Translations under genes and position numbers: made by a program
Shown: one piece after another, positions 2,148 to 63,891 of the stretch
Layout: each line of letters starts with the position of its first letter
How positions within the stretch are numbered: position 1 is the first letter of the stretch
Assembly (NCBI RefSeq): GCF_003334405.1
Contig: NZ_QOWM01000012.1
Strand: one strand, 5' to 3'
Length of the DNA: 64,000 nt
From: Escherichia coli
GTDB lineage: Bacteria > Pseudomonadota > Gammaproteobacteria > Enterobacterales > Enterobacteriaceae
Notes under the pieces: generated by a model
Databases searched by the model: none
Told to the model about the DNA's origin: nothing
The model's input: only the letters and a program-made list of their open reading frames with translations

Positions 2148-3062
2148 TTACTGCAGCAGGCTGGAAACCATGCTGGACATGCTGTTGGACTGTTTCAGCA
2201 TGGTGATGCCGGTCTGCATCAGCACCTGCTGTTTGGTCATATTGGACGCTTCCGTAGCGTAGTCGGTATCCATGATGTTACCGATAGCAACTTCGGTGTT
2301 GTCCTGCATACTGGTCAGGTTATTAGCCGTGTCGTTCAGACGGTTGATAGACGCACCCAGCTTGGACTGGATCTGCGAAACATCATCCATCGCGGTAGAA
2401 ATGCTGGTGATCATCTGGTTAGCCGAGCCAGACGCAGTCAGTTCAGTACCGCCAGAAACGCCTGCGGTGCCTGTGGTGTCTGCCTGATCCGCACTGAAGG
2501 AGTTGCTGATAGCAGAAAGGTCAGTCACCAGCGTGTTCAGTTGGCTAGAGATGTTCACGGTCATGGTGTCGGAAGATTCCGCGCCCACCTGGAAAGTTAC
2601 CGCGCTCTGGAACAGGCCGTCAGTACCGGTGTTGCTGGTGCCGGAAACACCGAACAGGTTGGTGCCGCCGTAGGTGGTGTTTTGCAGCATGTCAGACATC
2701 TGCTGGCCCAGTTCGTCGTATTCGTCCTGCATCGCCTGCAGATCGTCGTCGCTGTAGGTGCCGTTCGCTGCCTGAGTTGACAGGTCTTTCATACGACCCA
2801 GCACGTCAGACATTTCGTCGAACATGCTGTCGGCGGTTTGCAGCATCGCGGTGGCATCATTGATGTTGCTCAGCGCAACATCCATACCGCTGGACTGTGC
2901 TGTCAGACGGTTAGCAATTTGTTTGCCTGCGGCGTCATCGGCAGAAGAGTTAATCCGGTTACCTGTCGCCAGGCGTTCCATAGATGTAGACAGAGAAGAG
3001 CTGCTTTTGCTGATTGCATTAACGGCGGCCATTGAGGCGTTATTGGTGTTAATAGATAACAT
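2148..3062 (-). CDS. lafA: Lateral-type flagellin (short flagellin without large D2/D3 domains)
   Basis: Starts MLSINTNNASMAAVN... at ATG 3062 behind an AAGGAG RBS; conserved flagellin N and C termini (..QVLMQTGITMLKQSNSMSSMVSSLLQ); the track ORF start at 3128 is an upstream in-frame extension. Confidence 0.9.
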   Translation of the reverse strand: MLSINTNNASMAAVNAISKSSSSLSTSMERLATGNRINSSADDAAGKQIANRLTAQSSGMDVALSNINDATAMLQTADSMFDEMSDVLGRMKDLSTQAANGTYSDDDLQAMQDEYDELGQQMSDMLQNTTYGGTNLFGVSGTSNTGTDGLFQSAVTFQVGAESSDTMTVNISSQLNTLVTDLSAISNSFSADQADTTGTAGVSGGTELTASGSANQMITSISTAMDDVSQIQSKLGASINRLNDTANNLTSMQDNTEVAIGNIMDTDYATEASNMTKQQVLMQTGITMLKQSNSMSSMVSSLLQ

Positions 3063-3107
3063 GATACTGCTCCTTGGGATTAATCGTTTTCGTTTCGATA
3101 CCCTGTA

Positions 3108-3133
3108 AAAACGACACCTCGGGAGCAAACTTA
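3108..3133 (-). promoter_or_regulatory. Candidate sigma28-like (class III) promoter for lafA
   Basis: Minus strand TAAGTTT-N11-GTCGTTTT versus the FliA consensus TAAAGTTT-N11-GCCGATAA: good -35, partial -10 (4/8). Confidence 0.3.
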
Positions 3134-3496
3134 AAACCGCCGTTAAAAAAATTTCACTGCGGTTTATCTGATGCCACTTTTAGCTAAAAAAAGCAGAGTT
3201 TAAATTCAGATAAAAAGATTATTAGCAATATCTGCCACATGGCCAGGTATCAAAATATGTCTTTATCAAACGCTTGATATAGTTAAGATTACCATCAATT
3301 AACGCGTTTTCTTCTCAATGTACTGATGCCAAAATTTACATTGCGTTGCAAATAGTACACATTTGGCTATTGTACCTGTCCTGTCATTTCGTTACATTTC
3401 CACGCCATATAGTGATTAAGAATAATCCTATTACCATAAAATATTAATTATCACGCAGAAAAATCATCTTCTCAGGGACGTATAAGACTGTGCTTT

Positions 3497-4390
3497 ATGC
3501 AAAGCACTATCAGGAAACATTTATCCCTTGCTAAGGTAAACTCAACTATGAGTATTATTATCAACAACTGGCGGATGGACCCGTCGCTTAATGCCTTAAT
3601 ACATTGCGAAACGGGTGAAACACGTCGTCTCGGCGAATACCATTTTATTTTGCTGGAAACATTAGCAAAAAATGCCGATGTGGTTTTATCGCGATCTTAT
3701 TTATGTGCCGAAGTATGGAAGAACCGCATTGTCGGCGGTAACAGCCTGCCGACGGCGATACATGCATTACGCGTTGCTATCGACGATGATGGCAAACAAC
3801 AGAACATTATTAAAACCATCCCGAAAAAAGGTTACCTGTGCAATAAAGAGTATGTGTCTTTGCCGGAGTCATCGCCTGCGGAAGCGCTGATTATTACCAA
3901 CCAGGTACAGGAAACTGTGCCAGGAGAGATATCTTCGACAACCCTGCCTGTGCCTGTTAGAAAAAAACATAAAGGACTGATGGGGTTAGCGTTGACCGCG
4001 GCTGTTATATTTATTGGCTCGACCGTGGGGTATTCACACTTGAAAAGTACACCTGACGCCCCGCAACTGGTAAAAGAGTCAATTAACAGCCCAAGAATAA
4101 AAATATTTCACCTTAGTTCTGGAAAAGAAAATAATTCCGCACCGTTACTGTCACAAACCCTCGCACCAGGAAAAGACAAACTCGATAATTTATTGTCAGC
4201 GCATAATATGACAATGACAACCTATTATAAATATGTTCGTAACCGACTGGAGAGTGATATTGTTCTGCGCAACCAGTGCAACGGTAGCTGGCAATTAACC
4301 TTTAATGTGGATGAGTGGCAGAATAGCGATATTAATAGCGCGATGTATCAGAATTTAGAGAAGTTGTTAAATACTGTGCAGAAGTGCTGA
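3497..4390 (+). CDS. lafZ: ToxR/CadC-like membrane-anchored transcriptional regulator (OmpR-type winged helix, one TM segment, periplasmic domain)
   Basis: N-terminal region resembles an OmpR/PhoB-type DNA-binding domain (..TIPKKGY); hydrophobic segment GLMGLALTAAVIFIGSTVGY; divergent from lafA; the true start may be the internal Met at 3548. Confidence 0.55.
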   Translation: MQSTIRKHLSLAKVNSTMSIIINNWRMDPSLNALIHCETGETRRLGEYHFILLETLAKNADVVLSRSYLCAEVWKNRIVGGNSLPTAIHALRVAIDDDGKQQNIIKTIPKKGYLCNKEYVSLPESSPAEALIITNQVQETVPGEISSTTLPVPVRKKHKGLMGLALTAAVIFIGSTVGYSHLKSTPDAPQLVKESINSPRIKIFHLSSGKENNSAPLLSQTLAPGKDKLDNLLSAHNMTMTTYYKYVRNRLESDIVLRNQCNGSWQLTFNVDEWQNSDINSAMYQNLEKLLNTVQKC

Positions 4391-4448
4391 TGAGTGCCAA
4401 TATATGCCGGATGCGACGCTAAACGCGTCTTATCCGGCCTACCGATAA

Positions 4449-5426
4449 TTATCCCAATAAACTCCTCACCGTCTGGCTGGAAATTCGCGCCTGACCATTC
4501 ACCGCCTGCAATAACACCTGATAGTTATGATTCGCGCTATCCAACACGCCGCCGAGATTTTCCGACGCCTGCACGGCGTTTTCCGTTTGCGGGAAGCGGG
4601 ACATGCCGTCGATCAACTGGCGGGCTTTTTCCTGCTGCACCGCCATTTGCGCGCGCTGCTGATTAATGTTTTCTAACATCTGGGAAATCCCTGCCCCGCC
4701 CTGTTGCAGGCTTTGCGCTAAACGCTCGGCCTGCGACGGTTCGGCAAAGGTTTTTAGCGGCATAAACGCCGACTTATCACCATCGGTGCGCACGCTTAAG
4801 GTGCTTTCAATGTTGGGCCACTGCTTTTCGGTGGTGGAGAAGCTGATGCCGTCCGCTTGCTGATGCAGTTGCACACCCACGCGGCGCAGGGCGTTGGTCA
4901 GCCGCGTCTGATACTGCGCGGCGCTGTCATCCTCAGACAGCATCACCGCCGAAAGCTGAGTCTGCCGCCCGTCAGAGACGCTGAACATGCGCGTTCCCGG
5001 CGTGGGGTTGTGTACGAGATTCGCCAGATCCGGCGAGTGAAAAGTCACCCGCGCCTCGCCCTGCAACACTGGCTGCAACTGGCGGTCTACCGCACCGCCG
5101 GAAAGCGCGGTGCGTTTGTCCAGCATCTGCATCAGCGCCGTACTCTGCGCCTGCCCGCCCTTACGCTGGCTGTGACGATAATCGAGCAACTGCTGCTCCA
5201 GTTGCCCGAGGTAGTGATCCGCCTGCTGCAACGTGGTGAGCTGGTCGTTAAGCTGCACGCTGTAACGCTGCGGGCGAGTGGTAATCAGCGGCGAGGCCGG
5301 ATATTCACTCGCCGTCGCCGGGAGTTTTTGCCGCACCGCCTGAGTGGGCGCAACGGTTGACGACGATACCGCAGCGCTATGCGCGCTGCCGGTGGCGAGT
5401 GACGAAGAAGTAAGTCCGACCTGCAT
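4449..5426 (-). CDS. lafW: Flag-2 protein of uncertain function (LafW-like, possible hook-associated/axial protein)
   Basis: 325-aa ORF directly downstream of lfgL; Gln/Ser-rich with a flagellar axial-protein-like C terminus; naming by position in the cluster. Confidence 0.45.
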   Translation of the reverse strand: MQVGLTSSSLATGSAHSAAVSSSTVAPTQAVRQKLPATASEYPASPLITTRPQRYSVQLNDQLTTLQQADHYLGQLEQQLLDYRHSQRKGGQAQSTALMQMLDKRTALSGGAVDRQLQPVLQGEARVTFHSPDLANLVHNPTPGTRMFSVSDGRQTQLSAVMLSEDDSAAQYQTRLTNALRRVGVQLHQQADGISFSTTEKQWPNIESTLSVRTDGDKSAFMPLKTFAEPSQAERLAQSLQQGGAGISQMLENINQQRAQMAVQQEKARQLIDGMSRFPQTENAVQASENLGGVLDSANHNYQVLLQAVNGQARISSQTVRSLLG

Positions 5427-7834: not shown

Positions 7835-8060
<226 letters not shown>

Positions 8061-27177: not shown

Positions 27178-27275
<98 letters not shown>

Positions 27276-33691: not shown

Positions 33692-33900
33692 AACTGCCGG
33701 ATGCGGCGTGAACGCCTTATCCGTCCTACCGTTCAGGCACAAGTTTGTAGGCATGATAAGACGCGCCAGCGTCGCATCAGGCATCTGCGCATAACTGCCG
33801 GATGCGGCATAAACGCCTTATCCGGCCTACCGATCCGGCACAAGTTTGTAGGCATGATAAGACGCGCTAGCGTCGCATCAGGCATCTGCGCACAATTATG
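33692..33900. repeat. REP/BIME cluster adjacent to rayT
   Basis: Four REP units: gccggatgcggcgtgaacgccttatccgtcctac, gtaggcatgataagacgcgccagcgtcgcatcaggc, and a second similar pair. Confidence 0.85.
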
Positions 33901-34479: not shown

Positions 34480-34572
34480 CGCGGGCTCGTAGGCATGATA
34501 AGACGCGCCAGCGTCGCATCAGGCACCTGCGTACAACTGCCGGATGCGGCGTAAACGCCTTATCCGTCCTAC
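34480..34572. repeat. REP element pair
   Basis: gtaggcatgataagacgcgccagcgtcgcatcaggc ... gccggatgcggcgtaaacgccttatccgtcctac. Confidence 0.8.
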
Positions 34573-37769: not shown

Positions 37770-37912
37770 GGATGCGGCGTGAACGCATTATTCGGCCTAC
37801 GGTTCGCGTACAGATTTGTAGGCATGATAAGACGCGTCAGCGTCGCATCAGGCATCAGCGCACAAATGCCGGATGCGGCGTAAACGTCTTATCCGGCCTA
37901 CGCCAGACTTAC
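37770..37912. repeat. REP/BIME cluster between yafJ and gmhA
   Basis: Three REP units (gtcggatgcggcgtgaacgc.., gtaggcatgataagacgcgtcagcgtcgcatcaggc, gccggatgcggcgtaaacgtcttatccggcctac). Confidence 0.8.
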
Positions 37913-41687: not shown

Positions 41688-41840
41688 GTTATTAACCTCC
41701 TAAAGCCTGGCGATAACACGATAATTTGCAAATCAGATATTTCCAATATCAGCATTTGTTATCAATTTATTCTGCGCTAAGGCAACTGCCTGATAAGGTG
41801 TTAAAGTTATAAAACCCTTCGCATAAAGGAGTTGTACACC

Positions 41841-42611
41841 GTGCCTGGTTTGAAGATTACGCTTTTGCAGCAACCACTGGTGTGGATGGATGGTCCTGCC
41901 AACCTGCGTCATTTTGATCGTCAACTGGAAGGTATTACCGGGCGCGATGTGATCGTTCTACCGGAGATGTTTACCAGCGGCTTTGCCATGGAAGCGGCAG
42001 CTTCGTCGCTAGCACAAGATGACGTAGTGAACTGGATGACAGCTAAGGCGCAGCAGTGCAATGCGCTGATTGCAGGCAGTGTTGCATTACAAACGGAGTC
42101 TGGTTCGGTTAACCGCTTTTTGCTGGTTGAGCCGGGCGGCACGGTACATTTTTATGATAAGCGTCATCTGTTCCGCATGGCAGATGAGCATCTACATTAT
42201 AAAGCGGGCAATGCGCGAGTGATTGTGGAATGGCGCGGCTGGCGTATTTTGCCGCTGGTGTGCTACGACTTACGTTTTCCTGTGTGGTCGCGCAATCTCA
42301 ACGATTATGACCTCGCCCTGTACGTCGCCAACTGGCCTGCTCCGCGCTCTCTGCACTGGCAGGCATTGCTGACGGCCCGCGCGATTGAGAATCAGGCGTA
42401 TGTGGCGGGATGCAATCGCGTCGGCAGCGATGGCAACGGCTGCCATTATCGCGGTGACAGCCGGGTGATTAATCCGCAAGGAGAGATTATCGCTACTGCC
42501 GACGCGCATCAGGCAACGCGCATTGATGCGGAGCTGTCGATGGCAGCATTGCGGGAATATAGAGAAAAGTTTCCGGCATGGCAGGATGCGGATGAGTTTA
42601 GGTTGTGGTGA
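41841..42611 (+). CDS. yafV: Nitrilase-superfamily omega-amidase
   Basis: CN-hydrolase fold (catalytic Cys in ..LPLVCYDLRFP..); GTG start at 41841. Confidence 0.85.
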   Translation: MPGLKITLLQQPLVWMDGPANLRHFDRQLEGITGRDVIVLPEMFTSGFAMEAAASSLAQDDVVNWMTAKAQQCNALIAGSVALQTESGSVNRFLLVEPGGTVHFYDKRHLFRMADEHLHYKAGNARVIVEWRGWRILPLVCYDLRFPVWSRNLNDYDLALYVANWPAPRSLHWQALLTARAIENQAYVAGCNRVGSDGNGCHYRGDSRVINPQGEIIATADAHQATRIDAELSMAALREYREKFPAWQDADEFRLW

Positions 42612-42651
42612 GTGGGGGTTGTGTTTAAGGACGGGGAGAGTCGGGGTATTA

Positions 42652-43788
42652 CTACGAAAGCCCGCTCCCCGCAAGGACTGACGCCAGGTAGTTTCTGTCC
42701 ATGGCTGCTTTTCGCATCTTACGTCTTAACCCTGCCTTGAATACCTTCTCATTCGTCAAAATATTAATAGCAATGTGCCGTATCCCTGAAAATAATTCTG
42801 CTGCGTTTCCTCTTCTTATTTTGTAGTCGTCTTCATTCATTACCACGTCCAGACGCCTGTGCAGCTTATTCTCCACGTGCCAGTGGTTTCGGATTGCTGT
42901 GGCGAACTTCTCTGCGGTTAAATCAGCAGAACTGATATAATATCTGACCGTCATTTCTGGCTCTTTCTTTTGTTCTGCTATTATTGACCGAAAGGAGACT
43001 GCCACGCATAATTTCTTCAGCCCTTTCCATTCAAACGTGAAATCAATAAGTTCATCAGGGACATCGCAAACAATATGAAGACGGATTTCTTCTCTGCCGT
43101 GACTCTTTTCACTCATTGCGTAACTGTCATGCGCTGGATTATTTAATTCTTTCAGCGGAAATTTTTCCTCAAAGGCTTTATTTAGCCGCCCCTGGTTTCC
43201 TTTTACCGCGAATAAATAATCACCTCCCTGTTTTTGTATCTTCTCTGCAATATCTTTCTGGCAACCCATCGCATCAGTTGTGATGATTTTTCCTTTAATA
43301 TCCAGCATGTTAAGAAGTTCTGGGATAGCTGTAATCTCATTAGATTTCTCATCCGTCCTGATCTGTCCGATGACCAGACTGTGCATTGTTGAGAACGCAC
43401 TAATGACATGAATCGCTCCCTTGCGGCGACTCTTGTCATAAGAATGCCGGAGTGTTTTTCCATCAATTGCGATGACGTCTTTATCATCTGAAGTATGGCA
43501 ATCTCGCATCCAGTTAATAAAGCACTCGTGAAATTTTGAAGGACTGATACAGGATACAACTCTGGCGATGGTATCGTGAACAGGAATACCATTTTCAAAA
43601 TCACCATATTGTTTTAAAAAATCGAGATGTGTTTCCCCAAAATCCTCTATATCTTCCCAGCCTTCTGCACCAGAAATAACGGCACAAATAGTCAACAGTA
43701 GAATATCCGATAATTTATGTTCCACTTTCCAGGCTTGTCTGTAATCGGGGATAATAGAAATATGTTCCATCAATTTTTTAAGTTCCAT
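42652..43788 (-). CDS. ISAs1-family (H-repeat-associated) transposase
   Basis: 378-aa ORF, apparently intact, with an H-repeat/ISAs1-type transposase sequence; the element ends were not mapped. Confidence 0.8.
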
Positions 43789-44218
43789 TTTGTTCTCCTT
43801 AATTATGTAAGGAGTATTTGATCATGTATAAGCAATAAAAAACAGCTTCAGGTAATGAGGAATATCTCAATTTTTAAACATAAAATGCGAATTATTTAGT
43901 ACAAAAAATCAGCGTTACGTGATCTTTCCCTGCCCCTGCGCTCACTACCATGGCTCTTTACCACAGCAGCCGGGGTTGTTTGGGACCGACTTCCGACAGC
44001 AGATCCCGGTGGGCCTGCCACCATCTCTTCACAAGCTTATGCTTATTACATGCAAAACGTCCCGTTTTGCATCTTTGTGCCTACGGCACACCGGTGATCT
44101 TTCCCTGATGAGGGATATATTAACTATTGAACATTAGCGCGAATTATTTAGTGCAAAAAATCAGCATCACGTGATGCTTTTCCTGCTATTAATAACCTCC
44201 TCTATTTAACTATATTTT

Positions 44219-44611
44219 TCATTGATGCAATTCGTAGATTTGAAGAAGTTCAACTGCCACATTTTTATTTTTACTATCGCAATTTTTATACCATACCCAT
44301 GCTTCCGTATTTTTTACTTTTTTTAAATCATCCATAATAAAATCCCCACCAAAAACAGTAAAATACAATGTTTCCTCATTAAAAATAAAACTCACTGCCC
44401 CCCCCTCTTTTATTTTAATTTCCGCTTCATTTGTGTTCAAATCAACTTTTTTAATTACTCCATGTAAGTTGGGTTTTGATAGTTTTTCTACGCCACCATC
44501 AGGAGCGGGTAATATACATCGTTTAAGAACTTTAGCATTTGCACATCCAATAACCCAAATTAGAATGCACACTCCCATGTTAATCGCATTAACGTGTCTT
44601 AAAACGTTCAT
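44219..44611 (-). CDS. Candidate immunity lipoprotein for the adjacent Rhs C-terminal toxin
   Basis: Small AT-rich ORF immediately downstream of and overlapping the Rhs tip; internal Met gives the signal-peptide/lipobox-like start [15 protein letters not shown]. Confidence 0.4.
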
Positions 44612-46017
44612 ATCTAATTCTCTCTCCAGGATGCGAATACATCCAACTTGTCACTTTCTTACACAACTCATCTACATCTTCATTCTGTGCACGGGTACAT
44701 CCCATAGTTGGTTTCCAGCCTTGTCGAGGAGCATAAGGATCGCGCAACGATGATCCCCCACCATGTAGCCATCTTGCTCTAGTATCTGTAGTATAGATCT
44801 TCGTTGTGCCATATGCTGCCGATATTCCTGATTCATTTGTCTCACAACCAACGACTTCACCTGTATATGGATCACCAGCACCACGTTGAGAACGACGATC
44901 AATTCTATTGCTACTATCAAAAGTCATTGAATCACCTGTTTCAGGATCATAATAAATAGTCACTCCTCCAGTCATATCAGTAAGAACAAGAGGAGTTTCA
45001 GCACCTGCCCGGTCTGGAGCGGGAGGCCCATATACACTTATAACTCGTTCTAACCCCAGTGGATCAGTGTAACGTATTGGTACCAGTGGATACGTGTATA
45101 GATTTATTCCCCCCTTCAACCCTATCGGATCCTGGGTGATATACCGCCCCTGCAACGGATCGTAGTACCGGTGACGGTTGTAATACAGTCCCGACTCCTC
45201 ATCATACTGCTGCCCCGGCAGACGGAGTGACTGTTGAAGGTGCTGCGCACTGGTTTCGCCCAGCAGGTTTCCCCATTCGTCATACTCCCCGCACCACGCC
45301 GTTTCCCCTTCCGGGCTGATAAGCGCCTGCGGCAGTCCCCGGTGGTCACAGTGGTAAAGATGAAGTTTCCTCTCCGGGATGTATTCCGCCTCCATCTGCG
45401 CGGCCATCTGTTCCGCCGTCAGCCCGCACTGCGCAAGCCATGCCTCACTCTCCGCACTCACCGCTCCCGCGCGCAGTTCCCGCTCCAGCCTCCCCAGCAT
45501 CACCGCCAGCTCCGCCGGGAGCGTCACACCCGTGTCCTCCTGCAACACCTCCGCCAGGCTCCGGTGCCGCGCCTTCGCCTGTTCGCCATTCTCTGTTTCG
45601 ATTCTGATGAGCGGCGTGAAGCTCCCCGGCTGGTATACCGTCTGGATACGCGTGGTGCCGGTCTGTACCGTCGTCAGCCTGTCACCGTCCCACCCGTACC
45701 ATGTCACCTCCGGTTTACGCGACAGCGACATCCACCCCGTCAGGTCACGCTCCCGCCGCCATACCCGTTTTCCCGTCCGGCGGCCCAGCGGGTCATAGAG
45801 GTACCGGCTCTCCACCTGTGGTTCGCCGTGCTGTATCCGCGTGTAGAACACCAGGCGGTGCTGGCTGTCGTAGTGGTAGTGGTGGGTCCGCTCGTCGTGC
45901 ATCCGTATCACCCCTTCCGGGATGCGGTCCGTCTTCTCCGCCAGCCTGCCGTATTCATCGTGGCGGTAGACATAGTGCGCATCTTCCGCGATGCGGTTAC
46001 CCGGCGTTTTCCCCGAT
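44589..46017 (-). pseudogene. Orphan Rhs C-terminal fragment: distal core, DPxGL boundary and variable C-terminal toxin domain
   Basis: ..[31 protein letters not shown] followed by a ~150-aa divergent tip; no N-terminal Rhs core; the frame stays open upstream of the track start to about 46017. Confidence 0.7.
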
Positions 46018-48511
46018 GCTGGTTGAGTGGCTTAAAGAGGGCTGGCTGCTGGCGTCGGCTGAGATGCAGCACAGCGAACTGCGCGGCGGCGTGTTGCTGC
46101 TGGCCCTGCTGCATTCGCCGCTGCGTTATATACCGCCTGCTGCCGCCCGGCTGTTGACCGGCATTAACCGTGACCGTCTGCAACAGGACTTTGTGCAGTG
46201 GACACAGGAGTCGGCGGAATCAGTCGTGCCGGATGCAGACGGTAAAGGCGCAGGCACAATGACGGACGCCTCTGACACCCTGCTTGCCCGCTATGCCAAA
46301 AACATGACCGCAGACGCCCGTAACGGCAGGCTTGACCCGGTACTGTGCCGCGACCACGAAATCGACCTGATGATCGACATTCTCTGCCGCCGCCGTAAAA
46401 ACAACCCGGTGGTGGTGGGCGAAGCGGGCGTGGGCAAAAGCGCACTGATTGAAGGGCTGGCGCTGCGCATCGTGGCAGGCCAGGTGCCGGACAAGCTGAA
46501 AAACACCGATATCATGACCCTTGACTTGGGCGCATTGCAGGCCGGGGCGTCGGTGAAGGGTGAATTCGAAAAACGTTTCAAAGGGCTGATGGCGGAGGTC
46601 ATTTCCTCCCCGGTGCCGGTCATTCTGTTTATCGACGAAGCACATACCCTGATTGGCGCGGGCAACCAGCAGGGCGGGCTGGATATCTCCAACCTGCTCA
46701 AACCGGCGCTGGCGCGCGGCGAGCTGAAAACCATCGCCGCCACCACCTGGAGCGAGTACAAAAAATACTTCGAAAAAGATGCCGCCCTGTCGCGCCGCTT
46801 CCAGTTGGTGAAGGTCAGCGAACCCAACGCTGCCGAAGCCACCATTATTCTGCGCGGTCTGTCGGCGGTCTATGAACAGTCTCACGGCGTGCTGATTGAT
46901 GATGACGCCTTGCAGGCCGCTGCGACATTAAGCGAGCGTTATCTCTCCGGGCGTCAGTTACCGGACAAAGCGATTGATGTGCTGGATACCGCCTGCGCCC
47001 GTGTGGCCATCAACCTGTCGTCGCCGCCGAAGCAAATCTCGGCGCTGACCACTCTGAGCCACCAGCAGGAGGCGGAAATTCGCCAGCTTGAGCGCGAGCT
47101 TCGCATCGGACTGCGTACCGACACATCACGGATGACAGAGGTGCTGGTGCAGTATGATGAAACGCTGACGGCGCTGGATGAACTGGAAGCGGCCTGGCAC
47201 CAGCAGCAGACGCTGGTCCGGGAGATTATCGCGCTGCGCCAGCAGTTACTGGGCGTGGCAGAGGACGATGCGGCGCCGTTGCCGGACGCAGATACCGTGG
47301 AGGATACGCAGCCAGAGTCAGAGTCAGAACAGGATAATACCGGTGCCGTACCGGCTGATGAGGCCGACAGAGAACAACCGGAAGAGACCGCTGAAACAGT
47401 TTCCCCGGTACAGCGGCTGGCCCAGCTCACTGCCGAACTGGACGCCCTGCATAACGACCGGTTGCTGGTCTCCCCGCACGTCGATAAAAAACAGATTGCG
47501 GCGGTGATTGCCGAATGGACCGGCGTGCCGCTCAACCGCCTGTCGCAGAATGAAATGTCGGTCATCACCGACCTGACGAAATGGCTGGGTGACACCATCA
47601 AAGGCCAGGACCTGGCGATTGCCAGCCTGCATAAGCATCTACTGACCGCACGCGCCGACCTGCGTCGTCCGGGACGCCCGCTCGGTGCGTTCCTGCTGGC
47701 TGGCCCCAGCGGTGTGGGTAAAACCGAAACCGTCCTGCAACTGGCAGAGCTGCTCTACGGCGGTCGCCAGTACCTGACCACCATCAATATGTCCGAATTC
47801 CAGGAGAAACACACCGTCTCGCGGCTGATTGGTTCGCCTCCGGGCTACGTTGGCTACGGTGAAGGCGGCGTACTGACCGAAGCGATTCGTCAGAAACCCT
47901 ACTCGGTAGTACTGCTCGATGAAGTGGAAAAAGCGCACCCGGATGTGCTCAACCTGTTCTACCAGGCGTTCGATAAGGGCGAAATGGCAGACGGTGAAGG
48001 CCGCCTGATTGACTGCAAAAATATCGTCTTCTTCCTGACGTCCAACCTCGGCTACCAGGTAATAGTCGAGCATGCCGATGACCCGGAAACCATGCAGGAA
48101 GTACTGTATCCGGTGCTGGCCGACTTCTTCAAACCTGCCCTGCTGGCGCGTATGGAAGTGGTGCCGTATCTGCCGCTGTCGAAAGAGACGCTCGCCACCA
48201 TTATCGCCGGAAAACTGGCCCGTCTGGATAACGTGCTGCGCAGTCGCTTTGGTGCAGAAGTGGTCATTGAACCGGAAGTGACGGACGAAATCATGAGCCG
48301 CGTCACCCGCGCGGAAAACGGCGCGAGGATGCTGGAATCGGTCATCGATGGCGACATGCTACCGCCGCTCTCGCTGCTGCTGTTGCAGAAAATGGCGGCT
48401 AACACGGCGATTGCCCGGATTCGGTTGTCGGCAGTGGACGGCGCATTTACGGCAGACGTGGAAGATGCTCAGAACGACGAGTCCGTCACAAAGGATGAAA
48501 CGGTTTTATGA
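46017..48511 (+). pseudogene. clpV: 5'-truncated ClpV/TssH (type VI secretion AAA+ ATPase)
   Basis: Two AAA+ modules (GEAGVGKS.. and GPSGVGKT..) preceded by only part of the N domain; the first ~100 codons of the track ORF are antisense to the Rhs fragment. Confidence 0.7.
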
Positions 48512-49170
48512 GCAGGTTGCGCGTTTTCCGGCAGACAGGATGGTTTATCGCGGGCCTGATGACGGGCTTACCCGCCACTGCCGCGCCCGCAGAAGCATCG
48601 TCAATGGCCGGTGTGGCGGTCGCCGTCGCCACCACGACCCCGCCGGATGCGACAGCCACGTTACAGGCCATACAGTCCTGTCGGCGGGAGTCCGCGGCGC
48701 TGGAGCGGCTTGACTGCTATGACCGCCTGCTGGCACCGCTGTCCCCGTCAGGGTTTGACGGGGCGCTGGTCAAAGCCGGTTTTGTGGGCGAGGCCTGGAC
48801 CCGCGCCACAGAGCAGGAAAAACGCCGCGAGGGCAACACCACAGAACTGCTGGTGACGCAGGTGCCGGGGGAGCGCCCGACGGTGGTGATAACCACCCCG
48901 GCTATCGGTCATGTTCCGCCACGCCCGGTGCTGATGTTCAGTTGCGTGGACAATATCACCCGGATGCAGGTGGCGCTGATGCACCCTCTGGATGTCCATG
49001 ATATCGCCGTCACTCTGAATGCCGACAACCGGGCATTGCGCAGCCACTGGTTTGTGCGCGAGAACGGCACCCTGCTGGAGTCCAGCCGGGGGTTATCCGG
49101 GATTGATGAAATTAAGCAACTGTTCGGCGCAAAAACGCTGACGGTGGATACCAGGGACGACGTATCGGGC
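48508..49170 (+). CDS. VasI-like T6SS-associated periplasmic protein; 3' end appears fused to the tssM fragment
   Basis: Signal peptide and a ..AALERLDCYDRLL.. motif; start overlaps the clpV stop (ATGA); the reading frame switches into tssM-homologous sequence near 49170. Confidence 0.4.
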
Positions 49171-49175
49171 CTTAT

Positions 49176-51074
49176 GTGGAACAGACCTATCTGCAACTGC
49201 TGGAGCAACGTTACCTGCCCTCGCTGTTTAACGGGCTGGTCAAAGCGATGAACGCCGCGCCGCCGGAGAGTGAAGAAAAACTCGCGGTGCTGCGCGTAAT
49301 GCGAATGCTGGAGGACAAAAGCGGACGTAACAATGAGGTGGTGAAGCAGTATATGGCAAAACGCTGGAGCGAAAAATTCCACGGCCAGCGCGATATCCAG
49401 GCACAACTGATGTCCCATCTTGACTACGCGCTGGCTCATACTGACTGGCATGCAGAGCGTCAGGCGGGCGACGGTGACGCCATCAGCCGCTGGACGCCAT
49501 ATGACAAGCCCGTGGTATCAGCACAGAAAGAACTGAGCAAACTGCCTGTCTACCAGCGGGTTTACCAGAGCCTGAAAACGCGGGCGCTGGGCGTTCTTCC
49601 TGCCGACCTCAATCTGCGTGACCAGGTAGGGCCAACCTTTGACCAGGTGTTTACATCTGCCGATGACAACAAACTGGTTGTTCCACAGTTTCTTACCCGT
49701 TACGGCCTGCAAAGCTATTTTGTAAAACAGCGCGATGAACTGGTTGAACTGACGGCGATGGATTCCTGGGTACTTAACCTTACCCGCAGCGTGAAATACA
49801 GTGACGCCGACCGCGCGGAAATCCAGCGCCAGTTGACCGAGCAGTATATCAGCGACTACACCGCCACCTGGCGGGCCGGGATGGACAATCTGAATATCCG
49901 CAATTTTGAGTCCATCGGACAACTGACCGGGGCGCTGGAGCAGGTTATCAGCGGCGACCAGCCTTTGCAGCGGGCGCTGACCGTCCTGCGTGACAACACA
50001 CAGCCAGGCGTCTTTTCTGAAAAACTCTCTGCCAAAGAACGGGAGGAAGCCCTGGCAGAGCCGGATTACCAGTTACTCACCCGCCTCGGGCATGAATTCG
50101 CCCCGGAAAACAGTACCCTGGCAGTACAGAAAGACAAAGAAAGCACGATGCAGGCCGTGTATCAGCAACTCACCGAGTTGCACCGCTACCTGCTGGCAAT
50201 CCAGAACGCGCCTGTACCAGGGAAATCGGCGCTGAAAGCCGTGCAGTTACGGCTTGATCAGAACAGCAGCGATCCGATATTCGCCACCCGCCAGATGGCA
50301 AAAACGCTGCCTGCTCCGCTCAACCGCTGGGTTGGCAGACTGACTGACCAGGCCTGGCATGTGGTGATGGTGGAGGCTGTTCATTATATGGAAGTGGACT
50401 GGCGCGACAGCGTGGTGAAACCGTTTAACGAGCAACTGGCAAATAACTATCCGTTTAATCCGCGTTCTGCACAGGATGCCTCACTGGATGCCTTCGAACG
50501 CTTCTTTAAACCGGATGGCATACTGGATACCTTCTACCAGCAGAACCTGAAGCTGTTTATCGATAATGACCTGAGTCTGGAGGATGGCGATAACAACGTC
50601 ATTATTCGCGAAGATATTATTGCGCAACTGGAAACTGCGCAGAAAATCCGTGACATCTTCTTCAGCAAACAGAACGGTCTGGGAACATCCTTTGCCGTGG
50701 AAACGGTATCGCTTTCAGGCAATAAACGCCGCAGTGTACTGAACCTTGACGGTCAGTTAGTCGATTACAGCCAGGGCCGTAACTATACCGCCCATCTGGT
50801 CTGGCCTAACAACATGCGCGAAGGCAACGAAAGTAAGCTGACGCTCATCGGCACCAGCGGCAACGCGCCGCGCAGTATCAGCTTCAGCGGGCCGTGGGCG
50901 CAGTTCCGCCTGTTCGGGGCCGGACAACTGACCGGAGTACAGGATGGCAACTTTACCGTGCGCTTTAGCGTGGACGGTGGCGCGATGACCTACCGTGTGC
51001 ATACCGACACGGAAGATAACCCGTTCAGCGGTGGGTTGTTCAGCCAGTTTGGTCTGTCAGACACACTGTACTGA
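49176..51074 (+). pseudogene. tssM: TssM (IcmF-like) C-terminal fragment; N-terminal TM/NTPase portion missing
   Basis: About 630 aa resembling the middle and C-terminal TssM regions; too short for a full TssM (>1100 aa). Confidence 0.6.
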
Positions 51075-55639: not shown

Positions 55640-55716
55640 TGGCGGAACGGACGGGACTCGAACCCGCGACCCCCTGCGTGACAGGCAGGTATTCTAACCG
55701 ACTGAACTACCGCTCC
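55640..55716 (-). tRNA. aspV: tRNA-Asp (anticodon GUC)
   Basis: Reverse complement is GGAGCGGTAGTTCAGTCGGTTAGAATACCTGCCTGTCACGCAGGGGGTCGCGGGTTCGAGTCCCGTCCGTTCCGCCA. Confidence 0.95.
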
Positions 55717-63642: not shown

Positions 63643-63719
63643 TGGCGGAACGGACGGGACTCGAACCCGCGACCCCCTGCGTGACAGGCAGGTATTCTAA
63701 CCGACTGAACTACCGCTCC
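63643..63719 (-). tRNA. aspU: tRNA-Asp (anticodon GUC), distal gene of an rrn operon
   Basis: Identical 77-nt tRNA-Asp sequence as at 55640-55716, 52 bp downstream of the 5S rRNA. Confidence 0.95.
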
Positions 63720-63771: not shown

Positions 63772-63891
63772 ATGCCTGGCAGTTCCCTACTCTCGCATGG
63801 GGAGACCCCACACTACCATCGGCGCTACGGCGTTTCACTTCTGAGTTCGGCATGGGGTCAGGTGGGACCACCGCGCTACGGCCGCCAGGCA
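63772..63891 (-). rRNA. rrfH: 5S ribosomal RNA
   Basis: Reverse complement reads TGCCTGGCGGCCGTAGCGCGGTGGTCCCACCTGACCCCATGCCGAACTCAGAAGTGAAACGCCGTAGCGCCGATGGTAGTGTGGGGTCTCCCCATGCGAGAGTAGGGAACTGCCAGGCAT (120 nt). Confidence 0.95.

Follow-up and report, generated by a model that had tools for sequence, protein, structure and literature searches.

Stacked H-rpt left termini and a group II intron fragment follow an Rhs toxin/immunity module in Escherichia coli

Between an IS transposase gene and the presumed immunity gene of an Rhs module, a stretch of Escherichia coli DNA holds a gap in which similar sequences recur in direct orientation. An initial annotation, made from the sequence alone, suggested that these repeats may be ends of an insertion sequence (IS), scars of Rhs-associated recombination or a small structured RNA, and the question raised by the locus is which of these they are. 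The answer proposed here, which we hold at a probability of about 0.9, is that the repeats are three left termini of one IS, the H-rpt, left by serial events and enclosing a dead piece of the intron E.c.I9.

The window, i.e. the whole stretch of 64,000 nt that was analysed, is the yafV-aspV region of E. coli. Its minus strand carries all the relevant genes (the Rhs fragment, the presumed immunity ORF and the IS transposase), and the 431 bp under study are 100% identical to the sequence of strain C and of many other genomes. The features referred to below are as follows.

41832-42611, plus strand: yafV, beyond the right end of IS-c.
42642..43932, minus strand: IS-c, a complete H-rpt/ISEc1-like IS of the ISAs1 family, 1291 bp, recognised by its ends and the family profile.
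42652..43788, minus strand: IS-c transposase, ISAs1 family, 378 aa, recognised by NF033564.
43933..44091, minus strand: 5′ fragment of E.c.I9, 159 nt, part of domain I, recognised by Rfam and alignment.
44092..44107, minus strand: IS-b, a 16-nt stub, CAGGGAAAGATCACCG, recognised by an exact 14-mer in common with 43919-43932.
44108..44185, minus strand: IS-a, a 78-nt stub corresponding to nt 1-78 of a diverged H-rpt left end, recognised by alignment and blastn.
44154..44178, minus strand: hairpin of IS-a, AGCATCACGTGATGCT and then GATTTTTTG, recognised by terminator scan and folding.
44219..44611, minus strand: presumed Rhs immunity ORF, 130 aa, from the ORF list.
44589-45911, minus strand: Rhs fragment with a C-terminal extension (RHS_core positions 970-1261, E 5.7e-175).

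The presumed immunity ORF (44219..44611) has no NCBIfam match, and RefSeq labels it a hypothetical protein in strains C and BL21; its stop codon lies at 44221-44219, and the first IS stub starts 33 nt downstream. The Rhs gene at this place is a 3′ fragment only (RHS_core positions 970-1261 plus the C-terminal extension; window 44589-45998). It adjoins, head-to-head, a 5′-truncated tssH/clpV on the plus strand (window 45701-51074), the match to which begins at profile position 73, ORF residue 100, and this gene is followed by vasI and by the C-terminal half only of tssM (profile positions 526-1167). What stands next to the Rhs module seems to be a rearranged remnant of a type VI secretion cluster. 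Further along, two tRNA genes with equal scores (55643-55716 and 63646-63719) and a 5S rRNA gene (63774-63889), all on the minus strand, fit the rrnH to aspV neighbourhood and would put the window near minute 5 on the E. coli map. Elsewhere in the window, Rfam matches to naRNA4 (CssrE) occur at five places (7900-7977, 27184-27260, 33750-33827, 34492-34569 and 37821-37898), one of which scores on both strands, and there is one match to ES036 (CssrF) at 2061-2103; these look like dispersed repeat copies that fit nucleoid-associated-RNA models.

The repeats and the IS ends

A repeat search within the window aligned 43887-43923 with 44139-44175 over 37 nt, ungapped and at 92% identity, and with one 1-nt indel the match between these two long copies reaches about 48 nt (42/48 identical). 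The chance expectation for a 47-mer with three or fewer mismatches was 0.00 in 100 shuffles. The third, partial copy that had been noticed between them is present as an exact 14-mer, GTGATCTTTCCCTG, found at 44094-44107 and again at 43919-43932. Self-comparison of the region therefore shows that the direct repeats of the initial annotation are real, with coordinates off by one to a few bases. Its length of about 45 bp describes the core match well but falls short of the true homology, which covers 78 nt in IS-a: beyond the first 48 nt or so, the long copies stay homologous for about 31 nt more (22/33), a score equalled by 3 of 5000 shuffles. Over the full homologous spans, 44185..44108 and 43932..43854, a global alignment has 64 identical columns out of 81. 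The view of the region as a non-coding, AT-rich gap is partly right, but the 159 nt between the repeats are G+C-rich (G+C 0.59 over the Rfam match described below) and differ from the repeats in origin.

The copy nearest the transposase gene is the first 46 nt of IS-c (43932..43887). The transposase matches NF033564 (transpos_ISAs1) over profile positions 1-314 of 314, with an E-value of 4.7e-122 and 407 bits against a cut-off of 70, and RefSeq lists it as an ISAs1 family transposase (WP_000420821.1). A search of 5426 complete E. coli genomes gave matches in 5335, with a median of 5 sites per genome; most of these matches cover window positions 43790-43932 only, halting at 43932 in unrelated flanks. 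Because the same end recurs in different flanks across genomes, this copy is the IS left terminus. In most of 8 aligned loci, similarity ahead of the transposase starts with (C/T)AGGGAAAGATCA, and typical copies finish, downstream of the transposase, in ...CGTAATCTTGCCCTG; their right end, CAGGGCAAGATTACG..., mirrors the left end of IS-c. The left inverted repeat, CAGGGAAAGATCACGTAACGC, agrees with the typical right inverted repeat, CAGGGCAAGATTACGAAAGCC, at 16/21 positions. In contrast to these typical copies, the right inverted repeat of IS-c itself (42642-42662, CGGGGTATTACTACG...), which lies 30 nt past the yafV stop, has diverged and agrees with the left repeat at 12/21; with such a right repeat, IS-c may no longer be mobilisable. 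Around IS-c no target-site duplication was seen, as is expected if older copies were lost by recombination or deletion.

Elements of the ISAs1 family, as classified in ISfinder, have terminal inverted repeats that start with CAGGG and a length of about 1.2-1.5 kb. IS-c resembles the H-rpt/ISEc1-like elements in its ISAs1-family transposase, its CAGGG ends, its imperfect inverted repeats and its 1291 bp, and it resembles the H-rpt of Rhs loci in its position downstream of an Rhs toxin/immunity module. It differs from a plain H-rpt in that solo left ends, two stubs of 78 and 16 nt, stand one behind the other upstream of the complete copy. Defective and tandem H-rpts have reportedly been described in the Rhs elements of K-12, and to our knowledge the transposition of H-rpt has never been demonstrated experimentally.

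The second long copy (44139-44187) falls in IS-a. When 44108-44200 was searched against E. coli by blastn, it retrieved other H-rpt left ends at about 80% identity, exactly over query positions 16-93, which are 44185..44108. IS-a breaks off after ...CCCTCAT, and the next base, 44107, is nt 1 of IS-b. This shorter stub begins with CAGGGAAAGATCAC at 44107, consists of nt 1-14 of the H-rpt left end plus CG, and holds the third partial copy. All three copies are thus left termini of the H-rpt/ISAs1-family IS, each beginning at its CAGGG end. At the level of sequence, the repeats match known IS terminal repeats, and of the origins first suggested it is the IS-end scar that describes them.

IS-a also contains a hairpin, located about 40 nt past the stop of the immunity gene. 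A terminator scan detected it at 44178..44163 with the tail GATTTTTTGC, the stem-loop standing directly before a U-run. The RNA folds at -14.4 kcal/mol (z -4.0), and none of 200 shuffles was equally stable; the homologous hairpin of IS-c is weak (-7.2 kcal/mol, z -1.15). It is plausible, on the basis of this predicted fold, that the hairpin and U-run end transcription from the Rhs toxin/immunity genes before the IS is reached.

The intron fragment and its homing site

Between IS-b and IS-c lies a segment that the first reading of the sequence had missed. It starts at a 5′ splice site, GTGTGCC, and the GTGTG at 44091..44087 fits the GUGYG boundary. On the minus strand, 44022..43902 matches Rfam family RF01999 (group-II-D1D4-2) over the full model, positions 1-118 of 118, and scores 81.8 bits where the gathering score is 36. 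The last RF01999 hairpin in the window comes from unrelated IS-c sequence and not from the intron; in this match the covariance model has finished its last helix with unrelated adjoining sequence. In O157, a 193-bp fragment contains the genuine last hairpin and scores 93.1 bits. A covariance-model search had been proposed as a check on a structured RNA in the repeats. The match that it gives is strong, but most of it falls outside the repeats, in the segment between them, and what it identifies is a dead intron fragment, not an RNA gene. No other Rfam family reaches its threshold in the gap: TtnuHACA28 and SNORD66, with E-values above 3 and scores far under the gathering scores, are noise.

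The fragment agrees with nt 1-159 of an intron of strain ATCC 8739 at 157/159 positions, a figure composed of 156/158 as computed and one matching base read off the alignment. It aligns from nt 1 with the 5′ end of an RmInt1-type intron of Sinorhizobium meliloti (115/152 identical), and blastn against plasmids returned Sinorhizobium and Rhizobium sequences at about 79% identity. Base for base, it is identical to E.c.I9-tr2 of BL21(DE3) (NC_012892, 242507-242665), at which locus the fragment is likewise present. E.c.I9-tr2 has been catalogued for BL21/REL606 as a 159-bp fragment "in another Rhs region" (PMC3522654, supplement). Both the fragment and the H-rpt ends are already known.

The ATCC 8739 intron is a full-length one of 1882 nt (locus L012, 3442-5323), located at the RhsE locus just upstream of an ISAs1 transposase. 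It has RF01999 and RF00029 matches (the latter at 5253-5328) and encodes a reverse transcriptase/maturase of 440 aa with 56% identity to the protein of RmInt1. In S. meliloti GR4, the RmInt1-type intron starts with GTGTGC at position 2942 of the retrieved locus and shows the same layout, with RF01999 at 3010-3131, an ORF of 419 aa at 3492-4751 and RF00029 at 4753-4827. E.c.I9 is thus like RmInt1 in its protein, in the 76% nucleotide identity of the 5′ part of domain I and in the match to RF01999. It is also like RmInt1 in ISRm2011-2 of S. meliloti in that the intron homes into an IS in sense orientation. ISRm2011-2 belongs to the IS630 family, whereas the host IS here is of the ISAs1 family and the window copy is a dead fragment.

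That copy is a fragment and not an intron. There is no RF00029 match for domain V/VI anywhere in the 64,000-nt window, and IS-c directly abuts the 159 nt, leaving no room for a reverse transcriptase/maturase ORF. Since it is without domains II-VI, the catalytic domain V and the reverse-transcriptase ORF, the fragment is predicted to be inert, unable to splice or to move. The fragment and full-length E.c.I9 have a 5′ exon in common, made up of ~15 nt from the tip of the H-rpt left end. Of the full-length intron, just 8% remains, and the exon-binding-site region is gone; the 3′ break of the fragment meets nt 1 of a complete IS instead of the 3′ exon, which would be IS nt 16 onwards.

The 5′ exon explains why an IS end stands in front of the intron. 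In ATCC 8739, the full-length intron is located between CAGGGGAAGATCACG (IS nt 1-15) and the continuing IS left end, i.e. at nt 15/16. An IS stub, (C)AGGG(A/G)AAGA..., precedes the 5′ end of the intron in 6 of 8 aligned loci, the window included, as well as in ATCC 8739, because E.c.I9 homes between H-rpt nt 15 and 16. Judged by this correspondence of sequence, IS-b is the 5′ exon of the intron. A check of EBS/IBS pairing at the homing site gave just a 5-nt Watson-Crick complement in the full-length intron (CGUGA, nt 310-314) to the last 5 exon nt, which is no more than chance predicts for a 5-mer in about 400 nt. Early papers reportedly placed E. coli introns in H-rpt. Leclercq & Cordaux (2012, PMC3522654) give "Rhs IS (= ISEc1-5)" as the target of E.c.I2 and E.c.I9, and in a full-text literature search no other relevant paper on a group II intron with H-rpt or Rhs was found. 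The targeting of a terminator-like hairpin, as by class C introns, was also considered and set aside: the intron is class D/RmInt1-like and stands upstream of the hairpin, not after it.

The other border of the fragment has a peculiarity of its own. Nucleotides 154-168 of E.c.I9 (L012 3595-3609), CAGGGGGAACGATCA, closely mimic the H-rpt terminus CAGGGAAAGATCA, and IS-c joins the intron inside this mimic, at nt 159/160 (window 43933-43938). The junction may lie there by chance, or the IS may prefer to insert at sequences that resemble its own end.

Origin of the arrangement

Comparison with other loci bears on how these pieces came together. Of 5426 genomes, 2851 have an intron fragment ahead of an H-rpt transposase gene, at several different loci, and the intron segment was found solely beside H-rpt copies, with a length that varies among loci. 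Seven other loci (at RhsE, RhsB, another toxin cluster and an O-antigen cluster) carry fragments of varying length, and further downstream of each of them stands a complete IS left end. The truncation points, by locus, are at ~97, 117, 146, 159, 193 and >350 nt, and the junction between fragment and IS is direct and precise in the window and in L002 (O157), L010 and L011. In L011 (strain 10035210-2, RhsE/pptA, 4850-5343), the 3′ end of the immunity gene, IS-a, IS-b and the intron piece are all present, the intron is cut at nt ~146, and an extra 25-nt IS left-end stub comes before the complete IS. Here the Rhs cassette was likely exchanged between Rhs loci by homologous recombination. The H-rpt of RhsE in K-12 has the IS left end and no intron piece. 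The plasmid matches pC27A-2 and pC27A-3 (L007 and L008), without Rfam match, with almost no ORFs and apparently of poor sequence quality, were left out of the comparison.

Diverged versions of the IS stub and intron 5′ fragment (~80-90% identity) occur upstream of ISAs1 transposases in a second RhsE variant with an intron fragment of >350 nt (L003, 5000-5520), at RhsB/yhhJ, where the arrangement is interrupted by IS1 (L004, near 5000), and inside an O169-type O-antigen cluster (L005, near 5000). Since such diverged versions exist, the association of the intron with the H-rpt left end must be old and not confined to Rhs loci.

In the window, the three termini are stacked head-to-tail in one orientation downstream of the Rhs toxin/immunity module, and every junction falls on nt 1 of the IS: IS-a nt 78 is followed by IS-b nt 1, and intron nt 159 by IS-c nt 1. 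Junctions placed exactly at IS termini suggest that the IS transposed in series and that the older copies were later lost. A possible order of events begins with an H-rpt copy, IS-a, which would have resided after the immunity gene. A second H-rpt, carrying E.c.I9 at nt 15/16 of its left end, would then have inserted at nt 78/79 of IS-a. Finally, the left end of the complete H-rpt, IS-c, would have come to abut the intron at nt 159/160. This could have happened through a further insertion of the IS and then recombination between the directly repeated 1.3-kb IS bodies, or through intramolecular transposition with an adjacent deletion. By either route, the older IS bodies and the intron beyond nt 159 would be lost, and the locus would retain one intact IS preceded by stubs of 78 and 16 nt, the shorter one followed by 159 nt of intron.

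The most economical history would be that H-rpt copies transposed one after another, all in one orientation, into the leader of a copy already resident, with a recombination or adjacent-deletion step probably forming part of it. Neither target-site duplications nor right-hand remnants of IS-a and IS-b survive at the locus. The truncation points that differ from one locus to another suggest that several such events took place. Two other routes were rejected. Internal deletion of an intron-bearing IS cannot put a complete left-end nt 1 after the intron, because in ATCC 8739 nt 1-15 sit upstream of the intron and no such end exists downstream. Abortive retrohoming, in which cDNA starts at the 3′ end of the intron, would leave 3′ fragments, whereas the 5′ end is what is retained here.

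It has also to be asked whether the region encodes a small, structured RNA with a regulatory role or serves as a cis-regulatory leader for the transposase. The strong match to a structured-RNA model (81.8 bits), the IS-a hairpin that folds better than its shuffles (z -4.0) and the retention of the intron fragment upstream of H-rpt transposases in 2851/5426 genomes at several loci would all agree with such a function. But the model match belongs to a known mobile intron, of which it is the 5′ portion of domain I; the fragment is 157/159 identical to the full-length element, its last hairpin is made of unrelated IS sequence, and its truncation point varies by locus, which is unexpected for an RNA under selection. 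Nor did any sRNA or other Rfam family score over threshold in the gap, and promoter-like sites numbered 4 against 2.9 expected from shuffles. Taken together, the promoter scan, the Rfam search and the locus comparison offer nothing in support of a small RNA gene as far as sequence can tell, and we consider a regulatory RNA or leader very unlikely.

Tandem duplication in place, with a period of 252 bp, or insertion of a middle segment of about 200 bp that left a long target-site duplication, would account for two similar units of ~48 nt that lie 252 bp apart in direct orientation around a foreign segment. Such an origin is extremely improbable, since the copies agree with each other at only ~88-92% of positions, whereas the foreign segment agrees with its source at 99%. 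Moreover, the homology spans 78 nt and matches IS left ends at many other loci, a third terminus stands between the two copies, and the material after each copy differs in origin. As for mechanism, ISAs1-family elements listed in ISfinder duplicate only ~8-10 bp of target, and group II intron retrohoming makes no target duplication. We give just as little credit to the repeats being Rhs-specific recombination scars, i.e. displaced core/C-terminal cassettes or "orphan" modules, as the initial annotation had allowed. The site directly follows an Rhs C-terminal toxin/immunity pair, and in strain 10035210-2 the RhsE locus beside pptA has the module too, including IS-a, IS-b and the intron piece; nevertheless, 43887-44187 has no similarity to Rhs core or C-terminal sequences, IS or intron explain every part of it, and the IS stub and intron also occur in an O-antigen cluster with no Rhs nearby (L005). 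No part of the gap derives from Rhs. Recombination between Rhs loci is likely to have been a route of spread for the whole block.

The reading of the repeats as three H-rpt left termini around a piece of E.c.I9 can be taken one step further, to the idea that H-rpt prefers its own left end as a target and that the IS-a stub has been co-opted as the terminator of the Rhs cassette, travelling with it. Self-targeting would draw on the stubs of 78 and 16 nt, the 25-nt stub in L011 and the position of IS-c at the intron mimic. Co-option would draw on the A-tract, hairpin and U-tract of IS-a and on the presence of the cassette at RhsE in L011. The combined idea is speculative, and we think it rather doubtful.

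Meaning for annotation and for H-rpt

The locus is an ordinary mobile-element scar of a kind already known. The correct annotation of the gap is two solo H-rpt left-end remnants plus the truncated intron E.c.I9-tr2, and not a candidate RNA gene; beyond this right annotation its importance is slight. The locus does record serial invasions, of an IS into an IS, of an intron into an IS end and of an IS into an intron. The exact IS termini at all junctions hint that H-rpt was once transpositionally active in the E. coli lineage. If true, self-targeting by H-rpt together with co-option of its stub would be indirect evidence of past H-rpt transposition and of its choice of target.
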